From the NCBI GenBank assembly GCA_002421785.1, contig DIRZ01000003.1, positions 218,698-250,697 of the forward strand: a DNA stretch of 32,000 nucleotides. Direction: 5' to 3'. The DNA comes from Candidatus Saccharimonadota bacterium. Its GTDB lineage: Bacteria > Patescibacteriota > Saccharimonadia > Saccharimonadales > Saccharimonadaceae. The translations under genes were made by a program, and so were the position numbers. Positions 2,443-12,658 of this stretch are shown here, piece by piece. Every line of letters begins with the position of its first letter. The first letter of the stretch is position 1. The notes beneath the pieces were generated by a model, which saw only the letters and a program-made list of their open reading frames with translations, was not told the DNA's origin and made no database searches.

Positions 2443-3156
2443 TCGGTGAAGCGTCACCCACTGCGCCAGAGTAAGCTCAGAGGGTTTTCGCTCTGGCGAT
2501 ACCCCCACGCTCGCACGTGGCAGCTTAGCGAACACCTTAGGATCATGGAAGCTCTGCTCAATGAGGGTTCTATACAACGGCATATCTTTCTGGGGCAGCA
2601 GCTGCCCTGCACGACGAGTCATTGCGAGCAGTACTGTGTCAACATTTGGATGTGGCCAGTAGTCGGTCCGACGCAATTCCCTCAATATCTTCACGTCGTA
2701 CAAAGGCCCAACAATCATGCCAAGTGCACCAGTAAAGTGACTATCACTTTGTACCAGTTTTTTTGCGAACTGCTTTTGAACTATTAAATATATCGCATCT
2801 GGCGGATTATCTGCTTCTGTCAGTCGGCGTACAATCTGTGAGCTCAGATGAAACGGAATGTTAGAGAATACCTTATACTTGCTCGTTGGTAGCTCCATGG
2901 TCAGAAAGTCGCCGACGACTACCACTACATTGTCTAAACGAGTCATATTATCGCGTAGTTTCGCAGCTGCGCCTGGTTCATATTCCACCGCAATCACTTT
3001 CCCTGCGCGCGCCGCTAGTGCACTCGCAATCACACCGCTACCCGCACCAATATCGTACACGATATCATCGCGGGTTATCGAGGTCTTGCGCACAAGCTGC
3101 GCCACGAAACCAGGGTTTCGTAAAAAATACTGTGAATATTCAGCAAGTCGTTTCAT
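2380..3156 (-). CDS. Erm-family rRNA adenine-N6-methyltransferase-like protein
   Basis: 258 aa. YSQYFL (SQNFL-type), SAM motif DIGAGSGVI, FSNIPFHLSS (NIPY motif), AIYLIVQKQFAKKL and WPHPNVDTVLL closely parallel ErmB/ErmC blocks recalled from memory. Confidence 0.7.
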   Translation of the reverse strand: MKRLAEYSQYFLRNPGFVAQLVRKTSITRDDIVYDIGAGSGVIASALAARAGKVIAVEYEPGAAAKLRDNMTRLDNVVVVVGDFLTMELPTSKYKVFSNIPFHLSSQIVRRLTEADNPPDAIYLIVQKQFAKKLVQSDSHFTGALGMIVGPLYDVKILRELRRTDYWPHPNVDTVLLAMTRRAGQLLPQKDMPLYRTLIEQSFHDPKVFAKLPRASVGVSPERKPSELTLAQWVTLHRLVLDSGGLIELQRDQVRTKK

Positions 3157-3157
3157 A

Positions 3158-3625
3158 TTATTTCCGTTTTGGCAGTTCGCGCACCACCAACACCGCGCTC
3201 CAAAGCAATAAACTGGCGAAAGCCACCAGCCACCAACCGTTCATGGTCGGGATTGTTGCTCCAAGCAGCCCAGAATTTATGCCATCACTCGCGACAATAT
3301 TTGATACAATCGCCACAAGTAGCCATAGGATAGGCACAGCAAATACAGCGAGTCTGCTAATTTGACGGGGCGCCGCACTGAATTTCATGCTCAGCAAATA
3401 CGGCAACGCAAGCACCTCGAGGAGTGGCAACAAAGCAGCTATTATAACGACAGTCGCCTCACCGCCCGCAAATCCATACCCCGCAACGACATCCCCAAAA
3501 TCCTCATACGAGAATAGCTGCGCGACAGCCATCACAAGGTACACACAAGCAAGCGTAAACCCTCGCCAATACGCGGCGTTTTTGTAAAATTCCGCTGGAA
3601 ATATATCAATGATTTGCTGCTTCAT
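3158..3625 (-). CDS. hypothetical integral membrane protein (about 4 TM)
   Basis: 155-aa hydrophobic ORF. Its stop is 1 nt from the erm-like start, so an operon is likely. TATACT lies 6 nt upstream of the ATG, suggesting a leaderless start. Confidence 0.6.
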   Translation of the reverse strand: MKQQIIDIFPAEFYKNAAYWRGFTLACVYLVMAVAQLFSYEDFGDVVAGYGFAGGEATVVIIAALLPLLEVLALPYLLSMKFSAAPRQISRLAVFAVPILWLLVAIVSNIVASDGINSGLLGATIPTMNGWWLVAFASLLLWSAVLVVRELPKRK

Positions 3626-3789
3626 ACCCCTAGTATAAGGCTTCTAAAGATTTTTTTACATTTTTTACAGAAACGCTTGCGTTAAAGAAACATAAGGTGT
3701 ATTGTACTGATAGCGAAGTTACAAAAACAAACACACCAAAAAAACTTGTAGCATCTCGCTCTACGATATATCCACCACAACATATCTTT

Positions 3790-3818
3790 GAAATACCCCA
3801 CATCTCGTGGGGTATTTC
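3790..3818 (-). terminator. hairpin downstream of trmD
   Basis: 12-bp perfect stem GAAATACCCCAC / GTGGGGTATTTC with 5-nt loop. No clear U-tract, so termination function is uncertain. Confidence 0.4.
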
Positions 3819-3832
3819 GCTGATGTCAGGAG

Positions 3833-4486
3833 TTATTCTGCGCGTTTACTGTTTTGTGCCCGCCAGGCGGCGATATCAGCGTGATGACCGCTGAGTAGTA
3901 CGGATGGCACCTTACGGCCATTCCAGTCCTCTGGACGTGTATATTGTGGGAATTCAAGCGTCTCTCCATCACTGAAGCTCTCAATGCTGGCGCTTTCCGC
4001 CCCACCCAGTACACCGGGGATTAGACGTACGATACTATCAATAATTGTCATCGCGGGCAATTCGCCGCCCGTCAGCACGTAATCACCGACGCTTAGCTCG
4101 GCATCGATCAGCTCCAGTATACGCTCGTCATAGCCCTCGTAACGCCCGCACACAAATATATAGCCCTGCTCTGCCTCGCTGTACTCCTGTGCCATTGACT
4201 GCTTCCAGCGCTGCCCCCGTGGAGTCATTAGCAATACCTTCGCTTGGGGATCATTCTGCTTTGCCGCTGTGATTGCGTTCCATAGTGGCTCCACCATCAG
4301 CAACATGCCGTCACCGCCACCATAGGGCGTATCGTCAACTTGTCGGCGCGGGCCCAGGCCGTATTCGCGTAAATCAACCGTCGACAGCTCCACAATACCG
4401 TCTTTTTGGGCCTTCCACATCATAGAATTGCCAAATACACCCTTAAACATGTCGGGAAATAAGGTGACTACTTGAAATTTTCTCAT
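3833..4486 (-). CDS. trmD: tRNA (guanine37-N1)-methyltransferase
   Basis: 217 aa. MRKFQVVTLFPDMF...DDTPYGGGDGMLL...VCGRYEGYDERI...LTGGELPA are classic TrmD blocks. Confidence 0.95.
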   Translation of the reverse strand: MRKFQVVTLFPDMFKGVFGNSMMWKAQKDGIVELSTVDLREYGLGPRRQVDDTPYGGGDGMLLMVEPLWNAITAAKQNDPQAKVLLMTPRGQRWKQSMAQEYSEAEQGYIFVCGRYEGYDERILELIDAELSVGDYVLTGGELPAMTIIDSIVRLIPGVLGGAESASIESFSDGETLEFPQYTRPEDWNGRKVPSVLLSGHHADIAAWRAQNSKRAE

Positions 4487-4506
4487 CTGTTATAGTATCG
4501 CATGTA

Positions 4507-4535
4507 TTGACTTTTTTGTCTATATATGCTAATAT
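4507..4535 (+). promoter_or_regulatory. near-consensus promoter of small cassette A
   Basis: TTGACT (4507-4512), 17-nt spacer ending in TGc, TAATAT (4530-4535). Confidence 0.6.
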
Positions 4536-4591
4536 GTCGTTAGCTTTCGACACATTCCAGTCGACTGCGTCCCTACGAACAAGGAGAAAAG

Positions 4592-4846
4592 ATGCTCAAT
4601 GCAGTCCTGGAGTACTGCTCACCAACGATGACCACACTCGCACTCCTGAGCAAGGAGCCCGACGAGAACGGGGTGATCGCACTCATCTTCAACTACATCC
4701 CGACGTGGAAGCGGCCCCTGCTCAGGCTCCAGATCAAGAGGAACTTCCTCGTCAAGACGAAGAAGAAGGTCGAGGTACACTTCGACCGACTGATCATGCC
4801 TGGCGAGCCCCTCGCAACAGGCATACGCCTTGTGCCGCGGGCCTAA
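4592..4846 (+). CDS. orphan 84-aa protein, compositional outlier (very high GC3)
   Basis: AAGGAG 5 nt before the ATG. By hand count about 70 of 84 codons end in G/C and all 7 Lys codons are AAG. No family recognised. Confidence 0.6.
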   Translation: MLNAVLEYCSPTMTTLALLSKEPDENGVIALIFNYIPTWKRPLLRLQIKRNFLVKTKKKVEVHFDRLIMPGEPLATGIRLVPRA

Positions 4847-4852
4847 GCCCTA

Positions 4853-4960
4853 AGCCCACCAAAAACTGCTTTGCCGAATTGGCTCGATCTGATTGAGAGA
4901 CCTCGTTTCTCTCGGGTCGCCACAAACCCAATTCAGACGAGCCAATCGGTGGGCTATTTT
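4853..4960 (+). other. ~103-nt long imperfect palindrome followed by ATTTT (terminator-like or MITE-like structured element)
   Basis: Pairings 4853-4860/4948-4955 (8 bp), 4876-4886/4938-4947 (10 bp, 1 bulge) and 4888-4895/4929-4937 (8 bp, bulge), plus apical mini-hairpins. Confidence 0.5.
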
Positions 4961-4990
4961 CGTGCCCGAAATATGGTATTATATAAGCAC

Positions 4991-5323
4991 ATGGGTGAGG
5001 ATTTTCAATCAACAACTACCAACGTAAGTGGGGTTACGGATGCGGAACGGCTTGAAGCTAGCACGCGACAAGTTTTCATTGCGCCCGTACATGATGACGT
5101 GGTCGCAGATGATTTGCCCGATGAGGTTATCGTCACCCGCCACCTCGTACAGCCACCAATCGGCAATATTCCTACCGACTCCGAATTAACCACTTCATCA
5201 TCCGCACAGCAACACATCGACCAAAAAAATCACCGTTTTGCCCTGACTGTTAGCTTAGTCACGGTAGCTATCGTCAGTGGCGTATCGCTCGTCGCCTACC
5301 TGACTGTCGCGCACCTTAGTTAA
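4991..5323 (+). CDS. hypothetical tail-anchored membrane protein
   Basis: Same frame as ORF-track 4871..5323. TGgTATTAT at 4974-4982 lies 8 nt before ATG 4991, so that start is preferred. C-terminal hydrophobic helix ALTVSLVTVAIVSGVSLVAYL. Confidence 0.5.
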   Translation: MGEDFQSTTTNVSGVTDAERLEASTRQVFIAPVHDDVVADDLPDEVIVTRHLVQPPIGNIPTDSELTTSSSAQQHIDQKNHRFALTVSLVTVAIVSGVSLVAYLTVAHLS

Positions 5324-5346
5324 CCCATCAATTTGCAGCCACCAAA

Positions 5347-5374
5347 AAACCCACTCTAATTTTGGAGTGGGTTT
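5347..5374. terminator. bidirectional intrinsic terminator between convergent genes
   Basis: AAACCCACTC / GAGTGGGTTT 10-bp stem, flanked by an A-run (5344-5349) and TTTC. Confidence 0.7.
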
Positions 5375-5453
5375 CTTAGACATATAAGGCTCTCAAACCT
5401 TGTGGTTTGCTCGCATGAGCTGGTTCAGTGTTCTCGCATTGAACTGTTTATGA

Positions 5454-5876
5454 TTATATATCGAGGTCGTCTAGTTCCGCAAGCTCTTTGCGAGACTTTT
5501 TTGCGAAGTCCGATTCTTCAGGTTCGTCGTTATCCACACTTACAGCGGTTGAATTATCCACAACGTCTACTATTTCGCCATCTTCGGTCGCCGCGTCATC
5601 GCTTGAAATAACAGTTGATTCGTCAGGATTGTCGTTATTGACGATCTTTAAGTTGTACCTCGCAGCGTTTTTTGTCCCAAGCGCACGAAGCAACGTGCGC
5701 AAGCTTTGCGCCGTAACGCCACGCCGGCCAATCACTCGGCCAAGATCTTCTGGGTTTACGGTCAGTGTGAGTAGCACACCTTTTTCGTCAACAATGCGGT
5801 CAACGATAACGTCGTCCGGGTTGCCGACAAGTGATTTTACGATATATTCTACGAATTGCTGGTCAATAGTTGACAT
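5454..5876 (-). CDS. khpA: KH-domain RNA-binding protein (KhpA/YlqC-like) with long acidic C-terminal tail
   Basis: VEYIVKSLVGNPDDV...GRVIGRRGVTAQSLRTLL is a KH GXXG core. ATG 5876 lies 10 nt after AGGAG; GTG 5882 is the alternative start. Confidence 0.8.
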   Translation of the reverse strand: MSTIDQQFVEYIVKSLVGNPDDVIVDRIVDEKGVLLTLTVNPEDLGRVIGRRGVTAQSLRTLLRALGTKNAARYNLKIVNNDNPDESTVISSDDAATEDGEIVDVVDNSTAVSVDNDEPEESDFAKKSRKELAELDDLDI

Positions 5877-6014
5877 GCCCACTGGTCTCCTTTTCTGTCT
5901 CTCTGTTAGTATCGTACGCCTTTATTGTATCACGGTTTTACATTTCTCAGAATTGCGCGTTATATAGCTAAAACCCCCGGCATCGCCAGGGGTTAAAAAT
6001 ATACAGCGAATTGA

Positions 6015-6389
6015 TTATTCAGCCGCGACTTCTGCTAGCGCTTCGGCTGCAGGTGCTTCAACAACTTCTTCTTTCGGCTGGTTTTTGCGTAGCTTTTCAG
6101 CATTGCGAATAGGCTTCTGTTTGTCCTCAGATGCTTGTTTGACCCATTTTGGAAGCTTCACGCCTGCTGTCTTAAGGAGCTTAACGACACGTGGAGTTGG
6201 CTGTGCGCCGTTGTCAAGGAACTTCTGCGCTTCCTCAACCTGAACATTTGCTTCTTTTGTGTGTGGGTTGTAGCTACCAACATAGGCAACAACACGTCCA
6301 CTGCTAGGATGGCGCTGTGACTCTTGCACGGCGAGGCGATAAACTGGATATCCCTTGCGGCCAAGGCGTTGCAAACGAATTGCGAGCAT
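6015..6389 (-). CDS. rpsP: 30S ribosomal protein S16 (bS16) with Lys/Glu/Ala-rich C-terminal extension
   Basis: MLAIRLQRLGRKGYPVYRLAVQESQR is the canonical bS16 N-terminus. Confidence 0.95.
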   Translation of the reverse strand: MLAIRLQRLGRKGYPVYRLAVQESQRHPSSGRVVAYVGSYNPHTKEANVQVEEAQKFLDNGAQPTPRVVKLLKTAGVKLPKWVKQASEDKQKPIRNAEKLRKNQPKEEVVEAPAAEALAEVAAE

Positions 6390-6447
6390 AAAATCTAATT
6401 TTCCTTCTTTATTACTTCACTTATAGGTTGTTTTTTACTTCTGTACC

Positions 6448-6476
6448 ATTTTACACTTTTTTTACAGTAGTGTCAA
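6448..6476 (-). promoter_or_regulatory. promoter of rpsP operon
   Basis: On the minus strand: TTGACA (6476-6471), 17-nt spacer, TAAAAT (6453-6448). Confidence 0.6.
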
Positions 6477-6480
6477 TCTG

Positions 6481-7197
6481 TTATTTGCTTTGACGCTTTT
6501 CATACGTCTGCAGGGCGGCACGGGCGGCTTCTTGCTGCGCATTCTGCTTACTAGGCCCAACACCTTTGCCCATAAGCTGTCCATTGACATATGCTCCCAG
6601 TGTAAACACTTTGTCGTGATCCGGGCCAACCTCTTCGATAACTTTATATAGTGGTGTCGCACCATCAACTCGCTGGCTGACTTCCTGTAGGTGGCTCTTC
6701 GGGTCGCGCCACGTGCCTTCGTTCAGAATAACCTCAAGCTTACTGATGATGTGCGTGTGAATGAACACACTGGCGGCATCGTAGCCTTGGTCGAGATAGA
6801 TTGATCCGATGGTAGCCTCGAACGCGTTTGCCAGTATCTGTAGTCGAGCACGTGGAGTGCCGTTCTTTTCACCCCTACTCATACGGACAAGTGACTCGTA
6901 CCCTAGTTTGTCACCTGCTGCACCGATACTTTCCGTGCGCACCAAAGCAGCACGCCAACTGGTCAATATACCTTCTGGCTCGGTAAAGGTCCTGAACAAA
7001 TAGTCAGTTACAACCAGCTCGAGCACAGCGTCACCTAGGAATTCCAGTCGTTCATTGTGGTCGGTCACGCTTTTTTTGTGCTCATTCACATAGCTACGGT
7101 GCGTCAATGCCGTAATAAGTAGCTGAATATCCTTAAATTCAAACCCGAGCTTTTCGCGCGCAAAATCTTGGTAAGGGCCGATGGGCATCCCTGTCAT
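6481..7197 (-). CDS. rnc: ribonuclease III
   Basis: RNase III signature ERLEFLGDAVLE plus a C-terminal dsRBD (KSHLQE...GPDHDKVF...GPSKQNAQQEAA). Confidence 0.95.
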   Translation of the reverse strand: MTGMPIGPYQDFAREKLGFEFKDIQLLITALTHRSYVNEHKKSVTDHNERLEFLGDAVLELVVTDYLFRTFTEPEGILTSWRAALVRTESIGAAGDKLGYESLVRMSRGEKNGTPRARLQILANAFEATIGSIYLDQGYDAASVFIHTHIISKLEVILNEGTWRDPKSHLQEVSQRVDGATPLYKVIEEVGPDHDKVFTLGAYVNGQLMGKGVGPSKQNAQQEAARAALQTYEKRQSK

Positions 7198-7686
7198 TTA
7201 TAGTTTCTCCTGCCGAATCCGCTTCATAGCGAGCAGCATTAATTTACCAATGTCTTCATATTCAATCAGGTCGAGCGCCTCACTAAACGGAAACCACCTG
7301 ATTCCGTTCATCCATTCTTCTTTTTGGATTTCGTTACCATCAGAACGGACTCGTACCAAATAAATCTGGGTCGTCATGAGCACGAGCCGGTCGATACGGC
7401 GGTATCGAAAGTGGATCTTGCCCAACCATCCCAACATATCAAGCTGGTGCAAGCCGGTTTCTTCGCCAATTTCACGGCGGGCAGTGTCGACAGCCTTCTC
7501 GCCGTCTTCAATGTGCCCTTTAGGAATCGTCCAACGGTCCTTAGCGTCCTGAATCAACAGGATCTCGATGCCATCTTTCCCGTGGCGAAATACGATGCCA
7601 CCACTCGTGGGTTCGCGGACGATTTCCTGAATTGAAGCCTTTGGTTTAAAATATTTCTTGAATTTATCAAGCTTCGGCGCTGGCAT
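7198..7686 (-). CDS. Nudix hydrolase
   Basis: Nudix box [22 protein letters not shown]. Start chosen at ATG 7686 (GGAGGAG upstream) rather than track start 7737. Its stop abuts the rnc ATG (TAAATG). Confidence 0.8.
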
Positions 7687-8128
7687 TGTCTGGTTTCTCC
7701 TCCACAAGCGTCCTAAATGCAGTGCCGAGCACTCCATTTATAAACTTGCTTGAGTTATCAGAACCAAATGCTTTGGCGAGTTCAACAGCTTCGTTGATAG
7801 CGACCTTCGGCGGTACTTTATCACCACGGAAGAGTAGTTCATACAAGCCCAGCCGCAATACAGTACGATCAATACGAGAAATCTGCTCAATCGGCCATTC
7901 TGGCGCAATTGGTTGAATCTTTGCATCGAGACCCGGCTGCTCTTGCACAACGCCAGTCACTAAATCTTTCACGAAATCAGTGTCATCAATCGCCGTTTCG
8001 TATCGCTCTAGGTTACGAGTCAGTACTTCGTCGGCGTCCACAGAAGTATCGCCTGCCTGCAAGCGGAACTCATACTCATACAGAGTTTGAAGTGCGACGA
8101 TGCGTCCTAAGTGACGGTTACTTGCCAT
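7667..8128 (-). CDS. nusB: transcription antitermination factor NusB
   Basis: 153 aa. [13 protein letters not shown]...[12 protein letters not shown]...FINGVLG are typical NusB blocks. Confidence 0.9.
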
Positions 8129-8179
8129 TGTCTCTTGGTTCTTTCTTTGTTAATATCCACCCTAACAGAGGTAGACGTG

Positions 8180-8356
8180 CTACTTCTTGGTAACGGTTTC
8201 TTTTTTGACTGCTTTAAGCTTTTTGCCAGTTTCGTTCTTGGTTGTCTTAACCTTGACAGGTGATTTTGCGTTCACACGACGTGCGAGCTCAAGTACAAGG
8301 TGGCTGCGGCGTAGACCGGTTTTGCGCGGGCTCGACTGCTTCTTTGGCTGTGCCAT
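8180..8356 (-). CDS. rpmF: 50S ribosomal protein L32 (bL32)
   Basis: 58 aa, below the ORF-track cutoff. MAQPKKQSSPRKTGLRRSHLVL has the bL32 RRSH motif. AAGGAG SD upstream. Confidence 0.8.
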   Translation of the reverse strand: MAQPKKQSSPRKTGLRRSHLVLELARRVNAKSPVKVKTTKNETGKKLKAVKKETVTKK

Positions 8357-8397
8357 GAAATGTTCTCCTTTTTCGGATTCTAATAAAACTTAGTGTT

Positions 8398-8426
8398 ATT
8401 ATACCTCAGTTTGACTGGCAACTCAA
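8398..8426 (-). promoter_or_regulatory. promoter of rpmF-nusB cluster
   Basis: Minus strand: TTGAGT (8426-8421), 17 nt, TATAAT (8403-8398). Confidence 0.55.
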
Positions 8427-8462
8427 TACATTGACAAATATTAGTTATAGCGCTTATGTATA

Positions 8463-8491
8463 TTGACTTATAGTAATACTTATGCTATAAT
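8463..8491 (+). promoter_or_regulatory. consensus promoter of small cassette B
   Basis: TTGACT (8463-8468), 17-nt spacer ending in TGc, TATAAT (8486-8491). Confidence 0.65.
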
Positions 8492-8545
8492 GTTATTGTT
8501 AGGCACTTCGTCTAACCCTCGTACTTCCCCAATCCGAAGGAAAAC

Positions 8546-8851
8546 ATGTTCACGAACATCGTCATCACCCTGGCCTTCCTCGCCCTCGAGTTCGGCGTAC
8601 TGCACCTGTGCTACAGGTACAACACCCCTCTCGCGCGGCGACAGTACTCGGTCGCCGTCTTCGGAGCAATGGCGCTCCTCAGCCTCGGCAGCTACTGGTT
8701 GTCGCCCATCCGTGGCGCCGACTTCGTAGGTGATGTGCTGATGCCCAACCTGTGGCTCGGATGGATCAACATGATCCTCCTGGCCCTCTACATGATCGCC
8801 CTGGTCATCCGGGGCATCAAGAAGTACGGGCTCACCCCCGCCTCATTGTAG
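8546..8851 (+). CDS. orphan 101-aa membrane protein (about 3 TM), compositional outlier (very high GC3)
   Basis: GAAGGA SD. By hand count about 90 of 101 codons end in G/C. Hydrophobic segments IVITLAFLALEFGVL, VAVFGAMALLSLGSYWL and LWLGWINMILLALYMIALVI. Confidence 0.65.
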   Translation: MFTNIVITLAFLALEFGVLHLCYRYNTPLARRQYSVAVFGAMALLSLGSYWLSPIRGADFVGDVLMPNLWLGWINMILLALYMIALVIRGIKKYGLTPASL

Positions 8852-8870
8852 GCGGGGGTTTCCCCTTTTT
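8835..8870 (+). terminator. intrinsic terminator of cassette B
   Basis: CCCCCGCC / GGCGGGGG stem (8835-8842 / 8851-8858) followed by TTTCCCCTTTTT. The stop codon lies at the loop/stem junction. Confidence 0.8.
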
Positions 8871-8879
8871 GAGGCCAGG

Positions 8880-11315
8880 TTAGGCAACAATGCTGACGAG
8901 TTTGCCGGTAATGTAGATGACTTTCTTCGGTTCGCTAACAACAAATTTCTTTACATTTTCGTCCGCAAGGGCGAGCTTTTTAATTTCATCTTCGGCCGTA
9001 TCTTTTGCCACGTCCAGTTTCGCGCGCAACTTACCATTAACTTGCACGATGATTGTCATCGTATCACCGGTTAGATACTGCTTATCCCATTGTGGCCAGC
9101 TGTCCTTTTGGGCGCTGGTTTCGTGGCCAAGGTCATGCCACAGCTCATCGGCCATATGTGGGGCAAACGGCGCCACAAGCGCGACCAAACTGTCCAGCGC
9201 AAACTGCCAGCTATTGCCGCCAGCAAACCCCTTTGCCTTGAGAGCATACAAGCCGTTGGTGCATTCCATCATGGCGGCGATTGCCGTATTATACTTTTGG
9301 TCTTCTAGGTCGGCAGTTACTTTACGAATAGCCGGGTGGATCGTTCGCAGCACCTCAACGTTCTGTTCGTCATCGTGCCCAGCCTCTAGAAATTCCTGTA
9401 CCAAGTTCCATATGCGATTGAGGAAACGATAGGTTCCGGGCACTCCCTGTGGGTCCCAACGAGCCCAGACGTCGAGCGGTGCAGCGAACATCAGGTAGGT
9501 ACGAAGCGAATCGGCGCCATAGCCGCTGTTGATGATTTCGAGCGGATCAACACCATTACCCTTGCTCTTACTAAACATCGTTCCATCACTCGCAGTCACT
9601 TTACCGTTAAACAGGAACTTCTTGAACGGCTCCGGGTTTTCTACGAGACCCTGGTGCCAGAAGAACCTGGTCATAAAGCGCGCATACATCATGTGCGCAG
9701 TGGCGTGATCACCACCGTTATAGAAATCAATCGGCATCCACTTGTTTGCAATCGCACTATCAAAGATGCGAGATTCATTGGCGCCGTCCAGGTAGCGCAG
9801 GAAGTACCAGCTACTGCAGATGTACGTGTCGAGCGTATCAGTTTCGCGCGTTGCAGGGCCGCCACAGGTCGGACATGTCGTATTCATCCACTCTGTCGCT
9901 CGTGCGAGCGCACTTCGCCCGTCGCCACTCGGCGCAAAATCGTCAAGCAAAGGCAGCTCAACAGGTAGTTGCTCGTCAGGAACAAGCACGGTGCCGTCTT
10001 TTTCGCAGTGAATAATCGGAATTGGCGCACCCCAGTATCGCTGACGACTCACGCTCCAGTCGCGGACTTTATAGGTCGTTTTGGCTGCGCCCCGCTGTTC
10101 TTGCTCGAGCCATGCCACAATCTCTTCGCGGGCATCGCTGCTCGCCATGCCGTCATAGTGGCCACTATTCATTAGTGGTCCCTCGCCGTGATAACACTGC
10201 TCGGCTACATCATGCGGCTTAGTCACTACTTCGATAATCGGTAGGTTGAACTTCTCGGCAAATTCAAAGTCACGCTCGTCGTGCGCCGGCACTGCCATAA
10301 TTGCACCCGTGCCGTAACCGCTCAGCACATAGTCGGCCACCCATATAGGTACCTTCGCACCGGTCGCAGGATTAATCGCATACGAACCAGTTGCAATACC
10401 CGTCTTTTCTTTCGTTTCCTGGCGTTCTAGCTCACTCTTCTTCAAGCTATCTTTCACATACGCCATCACTGCGTCGCGGGTGCCGTCATTCACCAATTGC
10501 TCCACCAGTTCGTGCTCTGGGGCAATTACAAGGAACGTCGCACCAAACAACGTGTCGGGGCGAGTCGTAAACACCGTAACAGCGTCATCGCGACCATCGA
10601 GAGCGAATTCCACCTCTGCGCCAACGCTTTTACCAATCCAGTTCTTCTGTGCGGCCTTTACTACTTCACTCCAGTCAAGCGCATCTGTCGCCTCGAGCAT
10701 TTCATCGGCATACTCAGTAACCTTAAAGAACCACTGCTTCACTTCTTTTTTGGCGACTTCAGGGTCATCAACGCTATCATGCCGCCAGCATTTTCCATCA
10801 ATCACTTGCTCATTAGCAAGCACGGTTTGGCACTTTGTACACCACCACTGCATACGTGAATCCTGGTATGCCAGGCCCGCCCGATACATTTCACTAAATA
10901 TCCACTGCGTCCATTTGTAATAGACGGGCAAATGCGTACTGATTTCCTTGCTCCAGTCGTTACTCCAGCCCATCGCTTTGTACTGCGTATGATAGCTAGG
11001 AATAATCTTTGCCATACTTTCCTGGGGCGAAATACCGCTTTTAATGGCAAAGTTTTCGGCCGGTAGTCCAAATGCATCCCAGCCTACAGGGTGATAACTC
11101 TCGTATCCTTGCTGTCGCTTAAATCGTGCCATCACGTCACTAATGGTATAGTTCATCGCATGCCCAATGTGGATACCAGCCCCACTAGGGTAGTTAAACA
11201 TGCTCATGGCGATGTATTTTTGCTTATCGGACGATAGGTCCGCACGGTAAACCTGTTGTTCATCCCAGGCTTGCTGCCACTTTGGCTCAATTTCAGTTGG
11301 ATTATAGCGCTTCAT
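8880..11315 (-). CDS. leuS: leucyl-tRNA synthetase
   Basis: 811 aa. HIGH-type motif (GIHIGHAMNY), KMSKS-type motif (MFSKSKGN), editing-domain blocks. Confidence 0.97.
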   Translation of the reverse strand: MKRYNPTEIEPKWQQAWDEQQVYRADLSSDKQKYIAMSMFNYPSGAGIHIGHAMNYTISDVMARFKRQQGYESYHPVGWDAFGLPAENFAIKSGISPQESMAKIIPSYHTQYKAMGWSNDWSKEISTHLPVYYKWTQWIFSEMYRAGLAYQDSRMQWWCTKCQTVLANEQVIDGKCWRHDSVDDPEVAKKEVKQWFFKVTEYADEMLEATDALDWSEVVKAAQKNWIGKSVGAEVEFALDGRDDAVTVFTTRPDTLFGATFLVIAPEHELVEQLVNDGTRDAVMAYVKDSLKKSELERQETKEKTGIATGSYAINPATGAKVPIWVADYVLSGYGTGAIMAVPAHDERDFEFAEKFNLPIIEVVTKPHDVAEQCYHGEGPLMNSGHYDGMASSDAREEIVAWLEQEQRGAAKTTYKVRDWSVSRQRYWGAPIPIIHCEKDGTVLVPDEQLPVELPLLDDFAPSGDGRSALARATEWMNTTCPTCGGPATRETDTLDTYICSSWYFLRYLDGANESRIFDSAIANKWMPIDFYNGGDHATAHMMYARFMTRFFWHQGLVENPEPFKKFLFNGKVTASDGTMFSKSKGNGVDPLEIINSGYGADSLRTYLMFAAPLDVWARWDPQGVPGTYRFLNRIWNLVQEFLEAGHDDEQNVEVLRTIHPAIRKVTADLEDQKYNTAIAAMMECTNGLYALKAKGFAGGNSWQFALDSLVALVAPFAPHMADELWHDLGHETSAQKDSWPQWDKQYLTGDTMTIIVQVNGKLRAKLDVAKDTAEDEIKKLALADENVKKFVVSEPKKVIYITGKLVSIVA

Positions 11316-11323
11316 TAGCTACT

Positions 11324-11352
11324 AGTATAGCAAACTCTACCCCTATCGTTAA
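11324..11352 (-). promoter_or_regulatory. leaderless-type promoter of leuS
   Basis: Minus strand: TTAACG (11352-11347), 17 nt ending in TGc, TATACT (11329-11324), then 8 nt to ATG 11315. No SD. Confidence 0.55.
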
Positions 11353-11377
11353 GGGTGCCTACTGCATCAGTGCGGCA

Positions 11378-12658
11378 TTAGCTGTAGCGTTCAAAGTATG
11401 CGTCTTTTTGCTTCTGCCAGCTCGGTGATTGCCGGACCAGTTGCACATCTTCGCTCATATCACATAATATCTTGACTGTTTCTTCTAGGAATATCGTGTT
11501 TTGTGAACCTTTAGCCAAAATCACTGCACCATCTTGGGTAATAGAGCGGACAAACTCGCCTGCGGTTATTGCGTTCGACGCGATATGCACTTGGCAGCCG
11601 CGACTCCTTGCGACTGGCGCGAGGAACTTTTCGCAATCCGGCCCCACCAGTACCACCCAGCTTAGTAGGCTCGGATCACAAAGCGCTCCTAGCTTTTCGT
11701 GCTCCACCTGGCTACTTGCCCCAAGCTCTCGCATGTCACCGAGCACGGCAATACGCTGGGGCGCTTCTGTAAAACTATAGAGTGTTTGGAGTGCAGCGGC
11801 TGCAGCGGCGGGACTGGAATTATACGTATCATCAATGATAGTCGTGCCCTGAATACCGCGCAGTACATTCATCCGCCCCGGTACCGGGCGTATCAGGCTA
11901 AGCCCTGACACGATGTCTTGATCTGTTAGGCCAAGGAGCATACCCACAGCCACGGCGCCCATCACTGGCCGCAAGCTATGCTCGCCTACCACCTTAATCG
12001 TGGCATCGAAGGGCTCATGGTTCACCGCAATAATCGAACCTCTATATCCTTCGTCCACAGTAAAGTCTTGCTGCTCGAACCGATATTCAGCGGCTCCCGT
12101 GGTGCCATAGGTGCTGAAATTAGGGTTCGTTTCATAATCAGCGAACCGGCCCTCTACGTCATCGCGATTAATCAGCACATACTTCGCGTAAGCGCTCACT
12201 GCCATCTCCTCCTTCGCAACGGCTTCGATGGTTCCAAAAAACTCCATGTGTTCAGGAGTAATCGCCGTCACAAGCGCGATATCTGGCACAAGGTATTTGC
12301 CAAAAGCTGCTATCTCGCCCGGCTTATCCGTACCAAGTTCCTGCACAATCACATCGACATCAGTCGGCTGCTTGATACGGAGCCGTGCTGCGCGGAAAAC
12401 AGTCAGCCATATGAATGGATTACGAATATTATCTGGAAAGTCGATGCCCAAAATAGCCAGTGGCGCTGAAATATCCGAGTTGTGGTTGCCGTCGTGCATG
12501 CGAATCCGGTAACGGCGTGACAGCAAATCAGCAACAGCCCGCTTAGTGCTCGTTTTGCCGACGCTTCCTACTACTGCAACCAACTTTACTTCTGGGTGTT
12601 TCGCAAAGTATTTCCGAACATAGCGTTCAAGCTTTTTTTGTATGAACAATTTGAACAT
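11378..12658 (-). CDS. murF: UDP-N-acetylmuramoyl-tripeptide--D-alanyl-D-alanine ligase (Mur ligase family)
   Basis: P-loop VVGSVGKTSTK and DDTYNSSPAAAAAAL (MurF DxYNANP-type). Start moved to ATG 12658 (MFKLFIQKK...), which avoids overlap with the upstream gene. Confidence 0.8.
   Translation of the reverse strand: MFKLFIQKKLERYVRKYFAKHPEVKLVAVVGSVGKTSTKRAVADLLSRRYRIRMHDGNHNSDISAPLAILGIDFPDNIRNPFIWLTVFRAARLRIKQPTDVDVIVQELGTDKPGEIAAFGKYLVPDIALVTAITPEHMEFFGTIEAVAKEEMAVSAYAKYVLINRDDVEGRFADYETNPNFSTYGTTGAAEYRFEQQDFTVDEGYRGSIIAVNHEPFDATIKVVGEHSLRPVMGAVAVGMLLGLTDQDIVSGLSLIRPVPGRMNVLRGIQGTTIIDDTYNSSPAAAAAALQTLYSFTEAPQRIAVLGDMRELGASSQVEHEKLGALCDPSLLSWVVLVGPDCEKFLAPVARSRGCQVHIASNAITAGEFVRSITQDGAVILAKGSQNTIFLEETVKILCDMSEDVQLVRQSPSWQKQKDAYFERYS

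Follow-up and report, generated by a model that had tools for sequence, protein, structure and literature searches.

The window analyzed here is a stretch of 32,000 nucleotides from the genome of a Candidatus Saccharimonadota bacterium (GenBank assembly GCA_002421785.1, contig DIRZ01000003.1, positions 218,698 to 250,697 of the forward strand). Within it, a short gene, here called B, lies between a putative gene for ribosomal protein L32 and leuS. Along with its own promoter and terminator, the open reading frame (ORF) of B is a self-contained, monocistronic unit (cassette B, Table 1). As a preliminary description of the sequence had stated, this unit is oriented opposite to the genes on either side, both of which are located on the minus strand. 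A second unit, cassette A, is found next to trmD.

Table 1. Features of cassettes A and B and the genes flanking B. Positions are those of the window, counted from its first letter; GC3, G+C content at third codon positions.
Feature	Position	Strand	Details or basis
Cassette A	4507-4962	+	promoter 4507-4535; ORF 4592-4846 (84 amino acids, GC3 0.83); 3' hairpin 4853-4955, then T-run
L32-like gene ("rpmF"), 58 amino acids	8180-8356	-	Pfam Ribosomal_L32p, E = 0.066, below the cut-off; position beside nusB conserved
B promoter, -35 TTGACT	8463-8468	+	sequence
B promoter, 17-nt spacer and extended -10 TGcTATAAT	8483-8491 (TG 8483-8484; TATAAT 8486-8491)	+	sequence
Predicted 5'-terminal stem-loop GTTAGGC / GTCTAAC, loop ACTTC	8498-8516	+	-7.1 kcal/mol
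Predicted long-range helix, 5' strand CTCGTACTTC	8518-8527	+	between 5' hairpin and Shine-Dalgarno sequence; pairs with 8821-8830
Shine-Dalgarno sequence GAAGGA	8536-8541	+	read from the sequence; gap to ATG 4 nt
ORF B, 101 codons, three-helix membrane protein, GC3 0.89	8546-8851	+	sequence, AlphaFold2
Predicted long-range helix, 3' strand GAAGTACGGG	8821-8830	+	codons K92-K93-Y94-G95
Intrinsic terminator, arms ACCCCCGCCT (8834-8843) / AGGCGGGGGT (8850-8859), tail TTCCCCTTTTT	8834-8870	+	
leuS	8880-11315	-	Pfam support

The promoter of B matches the consensus at 11 of 12 positions, carries the additional TG, and is the top-scoring promoter-like site within positions 3000-12000. Since promoter-like sites are not enriched across this region (9 found, 9.0 expected), the functional case for this promoter rests on its conservation: TTGAC(T/A)-17-TATAAT (TAATAT in L117) recurs at a constant distance to the ORF in 9 lineages, with a variable spacer sequence. 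The promoter had first been described as perfect; the hexamers, the 17-nt spacing, and the TGc extension hold, but the match is one position short. The 54-nt leader of the same description is borne out as the distance between the -10 hexamer and the ATG at 8546, and its 3' end reads GAAGGAAAAC-ATG. Counted from a putative transcription start near 8498, the leader itself is predicted to measure about 48 nt. A purine-rich Shine-Dalgarno (SD) sequence is present in all B orthologs, at the same spacing to the start codon. A second TTGACA at 8432-8437 (within 8424-8443), 31 nt 5' of the -35 hexamer, is kept in all lineages and stands back-to-back with the divergent promoter of the L32-like gene (8426-8398, minus strand). 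This TTGACA is a candidate for an additional promoter of B or for an UP-like element.

At the other end of the unit, the strong terminator with a T-run that had been noted earlier proved to be a perfect 10-bp inverted repeat with a 6-nt loop (about -26 kcal/mol). It overlaps the coding sequence: its 5' arm is formed by codons T97-P98-A99, and the stop codon lies inside the loop and the 3' arm. Folding energies of the terminator range from -23 to -30 kcal/mol across all lineages, with 92% of the helix cells of the alignment paired.

The feature that most clearly sets B apart is its composition. Exactly 90 of its 101 codons end in G or C, while the first and second codon positions are far less extreme (GC1 0.54, GC2 0.40, GC3 0.89). 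Among 32 non-overlapping ORFs of at least 100 amino acids in the window, GC3 averages 0.502 (standard deviation 0.047, maximum 0.58), far below both B (z = 8.2) and cassette A (z = 7.0), which confirms that B is an outlier, as had been claimed. The elevation begins at codon 2, so there is no relaxed start region. About 95-96% of NNY codons in B end in C; over all third positions C exceeds G about 2:1, and both are far above A or T. B favors CCC, ACC, and GTC, where the background favors CCG, ACG, and GTG.

Two simple causes of this bias were rejected. Translational optimization does not account for it, as the codon preferences of B are not common to the ribosomal protein genes of the same genome. 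The gene for S16 has C in 8 of 16 NNY codons (0.50) and its four-fold degenerate sites lean toward T/A; the gene for L32 has three NNY codons only, all ending in C, and mixed four-fold sites (A 9, C 11, G 3, T 10). Those of B lean toward C/G. A regional effect on G+C content was dismissed because the adjacent codons are ordinary and the spike ends at the borders of the ORF, within 28 nt. The last 30-100 codons of leuS have a GC3 of 0.40-0.57 in most lineages checked, and rpmF has 0.47-0.53. The exception is L095, where the last leuS codons reach 0.57-0.68 and the whole gene 0.59. In 0.94 Mb of Saccharibacteria loci, a search for intergenic ORFs with a GC3 above 0.78, a promoter, and a terminator recovered only A, B, and the B ortholog of L017; nine other short ORFs were listed and not looked at individually. 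Two overlapping frames were also set aside. An antisense ORF of about 120 open codons is a by-product of the GC3, as it is free of start codons for 79 codons and lacks a promoter, and an off-frame ORF on the same strand (8463-8729) begins within the -35 hexamer and is not conserved.

To place B in an evolutionary context, we compared its site across related genomes. Relatives of the leuS gene place the window in the Saccharimonadales, and the nearest species representative is UBA1944, with 87% LeuS identity. The exact B protein is encoded on 11 metagenomic contigs, one of which is 812,921 bp long, which shows the window to be natural and to come from a genome of small size. Orthologs were found beside the 3' end of leuS in L008-L015, L017, L095, L097, L098, and L112-L119. 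Every sampled lineage of a genus-level clade thus has B in this position, as a single copy. The alleles of L008-L015 are 75-94% identical to B. In UBA1944 (L017) and UBA1949 (L095), a syntenic gene has the same layout of promoter, 5' hairpin, SD, and GC-rich hairpin terminator. The proteins encoded by these two genes were missed by tblastn and, once aligned to B, are 22-24% identical to it. Common to them and B are three hydrophobic segments, an RR after the first, a W-L closing the second, and a C-terminal K/R-Y-G/R-x-x-P-A. In one further relative (L013, positions 1-217 of a 798-nt contig), the cassette is intact from about 10 nt 5' of the -35 hexamer, beyond which lie unrelated AT-rich DNA and a divergent gene start; the break reflects a rearrangement or else a chimera of the assembly.

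Across the orthologs, the frame remains open over 95-101 codons in all lineages, despite protein identities of 22-45%. The GC3 remains high as well, with values by lineage of 0.89, 0.95, 0.95, 0.91, 0.81, 0.92, 0.93, 0.74, 0.89, and 0.85. The lineages that span this range have B proteins that are 22-94% identical and LeuS proteins that are 75-87% identical. At such LeuS identities the synonymous sites of ordinary genes should be saturated, and a foreign GC3 would have decayed toward 0.5. As it has not decayed across these lineages, the GC3 of B must have been maintained. When 1.84 billion representative proteins were searched with a profile, three clusters came up, all from within the B clade. 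A wider profile collected 19 family members, none of which is named beyond "hypothetical", and all that could be placed adjoin leuS. No relatives were found in DNA and protein searches of phages and plasmids, nor by peptide patterns in JGI metagenomes. A DNA pattern covering the promoter and leader, applied to the same metagenomes, again returned a UBA1944-type cassette (L102), plus 11 chance matches. Judged from these comparisons, B is an old, vertically inherited resident of one genus-level clade of Saccharimonadales, rather than a recent acquisition.

This bears directly on the origin proposed in the preliminary description, in which A and B were related acquisitions. In its fullest form, this scenario has both cassettes arriving recently from a donor of high G+C content (for instance an actinobacterial host, or a phage of that host) and retaining the codon usage of the donor. 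Their GC3 of 7-8 standard deviations off that of the host is indeed what one expects of horizontally acquired islets, and the codons resemble those of actinobacteria (NNC 95%, AAG/CAG/GAG, C over G at four-fold sites); the known hosts of Saccharibacteria are Actinobacteria. Cassette A is moreover a strain-level indel: about 450 bp, flanked by trmD and the plus-strand gene that follows, are present in the window and in L016 and absent from L009 (5265-5388) and L011 (1180-1240). However, both of the latter carry B, so that the two cassettes differ in their distribution, and the syntenic persistence of B at 75-87% LeuS identity, with a GC3 still at 0.74-0.95 and no homolog outside the clade, largely refutes the scenario for B. 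Unlike an acquired islet, B is atypical at its third positions only: with its GC1, its GC2, and an abundance of Ile, Asn, Tyr, and Phe among its residues, it is native-like and unlike the genes of a high-GC genome. Its promoter, leader, and terminator are conserved together with the gene, and no donor is detectable. We found no direct or terminal inverted repeats flanking B and no integrase or other mobility genes within 10 kb on either side, and the nearest tRNA genes lie at 1698 and 14080. For cassette A, a single homolog was found among 5.8 billion proteins, and no donor. Taken together, we regard recent import of the pair as very improbable.

We then turned to the transcript. The predicted B transcript spans approximately 8498-8870 (about 370 nt) and folds at -155 kcal/mol, well below dinucleotide shuffles (z = -5.7). 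Compared to shuffles that keep both the protein and the codon usage, the difference is negative in 8 of 8 lineages, with z-scores of -0.6 to -3.3. A 5' hairpin of 5-8 bp is predicted at the same place in every lineage, with differing sequences: next to that of the window, we found CGGAAT/ATTCCG, GTTGGA/TCCAAC, TGAGGC/GCCTCA, and GTCGGACA/TGTCTGGC. Between this hairpin and the SD lies the 5' strand of a 10-bp helix, of which the other strand lies about 300 nt further on, in codons 92-95. This long-range helix was present in the minimum-free-energy fold of all 11 ortholog transcripts, each folded separately, and in the RNAalifold consensus. In an alignment of 8 distinct lineages anchored on the GTAC core, 81.8% of its cells were paired, compared to 30-52% when the partner was slid. 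Three of the pairs show compensatory double changes, and the covariation score was equaled in only 6 of 500 shuffles. These changes alter the protein. In L095, Gly GGG has become Arg AGG alongside a C-to-U change in the leader, and the series Lys AAG, Arg CGG, Leu CTG, with changes in L017 and L117, parallels U, U, A in the leader. Since K92-G95 form one strand of the helix, and T97-A99 one arm of the terminator, the conserved C-terminal peptide (KKYG, TPA) may for the most part mirror RNA elements.

The helix lies upstream of the SD, which is unpaired within the enclosed loop of the consensus structure. In partition functions of single sequences, the G residues of the SD are mostly paired, with partners that are not conserved, and a local 5-bp hairpin contains the start codon of B-type alleles. 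Because the SD is unpaired in the consensus, we read the helix as an end-to-end clamp on a translatable message rather than as the lock of a toxin message. Pairing of leader and 3' end was also seen in the folds of cassette A and of three further cassettes described below (s58, s65, and s126). Against dinucleotide-shuffled 3' segments it was no better than chance (p = 0.06-0.96), and the helix is therefore claimed for B only. Nor is the 3' end consistently the best duplex partner of the leader: this held for the B-type alleles and L112, but failed for L097, L098, L017, and L095.

With the most conserved peptide motifs coinciding with RNA helices, a transcript more stable than shuffles, and a ratio of nonsynonymous to synonymous substitution rates (omega) of about 1 in some allele pairs, one could ask whether the functional product is an RNA of about 370 nt that is structured and non-coding, its open frame being incidental to its composition. 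The strict three-base periodicity speaks for a coding sequence, with a GC3 of 0.89 against a GC2 of 0.40. The SD and start codon are kept at a fixed spacing, and the frame stays open for 95-101 codons at 22-45% identity. At the protein level, the orthologs retain both the arrangement of three hydrophobic helices and the RR that follows the first of them. Intra-ORF helices received no net covariation support, and no Rfam family matched either strand of positions 4300-9000 at E <= 1. A purely non-coding function is therefore scarcely credible.

A folded message for a small hydrophobic protein also calls to mind type I toxin-antitoxin systems such as hok/Sok and aapA1/IsoA1 of Helicobacter pylori. 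In a module of this kind, or a related one for abortive infection, a constitutively transcribed, very stable, and folded mRNA would be held back from translation by its structure and an antisense RNA until processing or stress set it free. Typical type I toxins are shorter than 60 amino acids and have one transmembrane helix, and extreme GC3 is, to our knowledge, not a described feature of these systems. Like B, their mRNAs are monocistronic, with their own strong promoter and terminator, and have a lineage-restricted, fast-diverging coding sequence. Long-distance interactions that join the 5' end to the 3' end have been reported for both hok and aapA1 mRNAs (PMC5416894). The paired G residues in single-sequence folds of the SD, the start-codon hairpin of B-type alleles, and the high GC3 from codon 2 onward could all be counted toward such a role. 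An antisense RNA could arise by read-through from leuS, which ends 28 nt from B and has no U-tract behind the shared hairpin on its own strand. The product of B, however, is 95-101 amino acids long with three transmembrane helices, well over the norm for type I toxins. Its helix leaves the SD uncovered, the pairing partners of the SD are not conserved, and it is a single-copy syntenic ortholog, whereas toxin loci are multi-copy. No antitoxin RNA was found: the minus strand from 8400 to 9000, over the gene and just downstream, is free of promoter-like sites that score 9 of 12 or more, and Rfam returned nothing. In L117, another cassette stands between the B ortholog and leuS. We thus consider a toxin-like module unlikely, though it is the main alternative for the role of the protein.

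The architecture of the transcript can also be compared with mRNAs that carry 5' stabilizer hairpins, such as the E. coli ompA leader and those of aprE and ermC in Bacillus subtilis; the predicted effect, in B as in these, would be to protect from decay that depends on the 5' end. These share with B a stem-loop at or near the 5' end and a good SD behind it, and belong to strongly expressed mRNAs for envelope proteins, an expression level that for B is suggested by its promoter. In B, by contrast, a helix adjoins the 5' hairpin, bridges about 300 nt to the final codons, and borders on the terminator, and the coding region bears a composition signature.

The protein encoded by B is modeled by AlphaFold2 as three long helices (residues 2-24, 28-56, and 66-94) with a predicted local distance difference test score (pLDDT) of 80. 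Neither B, A, four B orthologs, nor the other cassettes matched any entry of Pfam, NCBIfam, PHROGs, or PADLOC at or near the cut-offs, in line with its first description as a small polytopic membrane protein without a recognizable family. Foldseek searches against the PDB were uninformative (the top match had E = 5.5 with the B model and E = 0.058 with that of A, which has a pLDDT of 68). The positive-inside rule predicts an N terminus outside and a C terminus inside. The C terminus (RGIKKYG) is charged, and part of this motif coincides with the RNA helix. Sequence variation is spread across helices and loops, which fits the view that the hydrophobic pattern matters more than the exact residues. 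A small multidrug resistance (SMR)-type transporter, suggested by an invariant Glu15 in helix 1, was rejected, as there is no Pfam match, there are only three helices, and proteins of the L017 and L095 types lack the Glu. The coding DNA of helix 1 (8554-8578) is 72% identical to that of helix 3 (8764-8788) over 25 nt (NIVITLAF and NMILLAL in the protein), and this likeness may be the trace of an internal duplication.

In its size of about 100 residues, three transmembrane helices, predicted N-out/C-in topology, basic C-terminal tail, and rapid divergence, B resembles class I holins such as lambda S. Unlike these, it has no phage, endolysin, or spanin context, no dual-start motif, and no PHROG match, and its place on the chromosome, amid housekeeping genes, is conserved. 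Moreover, a near-consensus constitutive promoter such as that of B would be lethal for a holin. For the role of the protein, we instead suspect an abundant envelope component under pressure from the host or from phages.

To assess selection on B directly, close alleles were compared. Their synonymous rates (dS) are 0.08-0.34, their nonsynonymous rates (dN) 0.08-0.19, and omega 0.4-1.1. For leuS in the same genome pairs, dS is 0.26-0.50 and dN 0.010-0.015, so that the dN of B is about ten times higher. With dS below and dN above those of leuS, the silent sites of B appear constrained and its amino-acid sites loose. The alleles are also mosaic, as the two main variable segments occur in every one of their four possible pairings (P0001, P0003, P0005, and P0007). 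In a comparison of positions 6400-8550 of the window with L009 and L010, a block of approximately 100% identity, amid 82-93% identity, has one end inside ORF B. Similar identical blocks occur within leuS, and point to frequent homologous recombination in this population.

Recombination offers a neutral route to a high GC3, namely GC-biased gene conversion at a local hotspot, with the composition as a by-product of allele shuffling. Such conversion mimics selection and would also depress the apparent dS at GC-saturated sites, and the mosaic alleles, with breakpoints inside B, provide the opportunity. The imported blocks are kilobases long, however, and cover ordinary genes of normal GC3, while the spike ends within 28 nt, with ordinary values in the adjoining leuS codons and rpmF (the leuS of L095 is somewhat higher throughout). 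The preference for C over G by about 2:1 at third positions also speaks against biased conversion. Finally, the same signature recurs in unlinked genes (cassette A, s58, s65, and s126), and not in the ordinary small genes between them.

The last three of these were found in gaps of the housekeeping block in related genomes. The first, s58, encodes a protein with two transmembrane helices and lies between a MauE-like gene and trmD (L112 5195-5371; L115 1236-1412; GC3 0.81-0.84). The second, s65, lies between a KH-domain gene and rpsP (L112 7191-7388; L115 3187-3387; GC3 0.74-0.79). Both belong to the UBA1944-type lineage and are on the plus strand in window-like orientation, and an ordinary small gene between them has a GC3 of 0.44-0.46. 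The third, s126, encodes 126 amino acids with a GC3 of 0.80 and is the cassette between the B ortholog and leuS in L117 (682-1062). All three carry a promoter and a hairpin terminator of their own, and none of them is present in the window. A and B are thus members of a clade-wide class of GC3-rich orphan mini-genes. All members lie on the strand with a C > G skew, which would be the lagging strand and would orient the genes head-on to replication. With this recurrence at unlinked sites, biased conversion at a single hotspot is distinctly improbable as the cause of the GC3 of B.

The kinship of A and B that the preliminary description had proposed can be refined accordingly. Their shared nature is supported by layout, GC3, and the three further cassettes, but similarity beyond consensus elements is marginal: the promoters and leaders of A and B align with a score of 10, compared to 0 +/- 4.9 in shuffles, and 28 of 1000 shuffles scored as high. 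The 3' hairpin of cassette A is long and imperfect, and is kept in L016.

The reading that we favor, while granting it somewhat less than an even chance, is that B is expressed as a strongly transcribed, end-clamped, and probably long-lived mRNA for a fast-diverging protein with three transmembrane helices, and that its GC3 is kept by selection on synonymous sites. In this model, the near-consensus promoter with its extended -10 would drive strong transcription of the monocistronic unit. The resulting mRNA would be closed at both ends by the 5' hairpin, the 10-bp helix between leader and codons 92-95, and the stable terminator. Selection on synonymous sites at the level of the transcript, for compactness or for resistance to RNases directed at A/U, would then extend the life of the mRNA, while the residues of the protein diverge quickly and are reshuffled among alleles by recombination. 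High expression and mRNA longevity as the selected trait are the conjectural parts of this model.

Several observations weigh against it. The stability beyond that of synonymous-codon shuffles is modest, and when the ORF is folded by itself, 4 of 8 lineages show an excess of about zero. Over the entire transcript, the covariation term of RNAalifold is unfavorable (+5.8), so that no specific intra-ORF structure is demonstrated. The evidence for the long-range helix comes from 8 related lineages, with single-sequence shuffles significant in just 3 of 8, and the core of the helix is a palindromic GTAC. Structure alone would tolerate wobble U, and yet 95% of NNY codons end in C, which points to a codon-like or nuclease-like cause. 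An omega of 0.4-1.1 is compatible with the exact sequence of B mattering little. Lastly, the transcription start, abundance, and half-life of the mRNA are all deduced from the genome sequence. Transcript-level selection is one way in which the preference for C-ending codons may be read.

The genes surrounding B, namely the L32-like gene, nusB, a NUDIX gene, rnc, and leuS, form a block (rnc-NUDIX-nusB-L32-gap-leuS) that is kept across the order Saccharimonadales. Of the two neighbors named in the preliminary description, leuS is supported by Pfam, while "rpmF" is weakly supported by a sub-threshold match (E = 0.066) and its conserved place by nusB. This match covers the first 23 residues alone, and the length of the protein among relatives is 47, 58, or 69 amino acids. 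The gap between the L32-like gene and leuS ranges from 84 to 1371 bp and contains different small genes in different genera, often for a LysM-type protein with one transmembrane helix. The gap thus appears as a hotspot for lineage-specific small genes (L018, L019, L051, and L053); that of L018 (8435-8680, minus strand) encodes a soluble protein of 80 amino acids and has its own TTGACT promoter. leuS itself varies in length. The protein has 811 amino acids in most relatives, but 921 in L014 (550-3315), 959 in L118 (2426-5305), where it includes a NUDIX Pfam match, and 1089 in L095 (5998-9267). The longer forms represent insertions within an essential aminoacyl-tRNA synthetase gene.

The B locus is of more interest than a transferred islet would be, as it combines a persistent, gene-confined synonymous signature with pairing between leader and last codons, within a small class of genes. 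It offers a natural case in which "silent" sites are not neutral, with an extreme GC3 kept over a long time while the codons of the next gene are ordinary. It also shows that a conserved "protein motif" such as KKYG.TPA can consist of RNA helices, which calls for caution in annotation and in dN/dS scans. The combination of a GC3 outlier, a consensus promoter, and a GC-rich hairpin provides a handle for finding unannotated mini-genes in genomes of the Candidate Phyla Radiation. If mRNA longevity is indeed the trait under selection, this would bear on how gene expression is budgeted in ultra-small, slow cells.

Saccharibacteria are obligate epibionts with tiny genomes, and their lineage-specific orphan genes are the first candidates when it comes to recognizing the host and to defense. 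A bolder interpretation, which we consider quite unlikely, is that B, A, s58, s65, s126, and probably more belong to an undescribed class of mini-genes, each equipped with a consensus promoter and a terminator of its own and oriented against the housekeeping operons, in which a selection other than ordinary translational optimization maintains actinobacterium-like, C-ending codons that match the high-GC host. In a less bold variant, they would form a dedicated regulon of nuclease-resistant, stored mRNAs for the epibiotic life cycle. If the matching to the host were true, the products or messages of these genes would act at or in the host cell, much like phage genes that track their host, and this would change the view of molecular traffic between epibiont and host.

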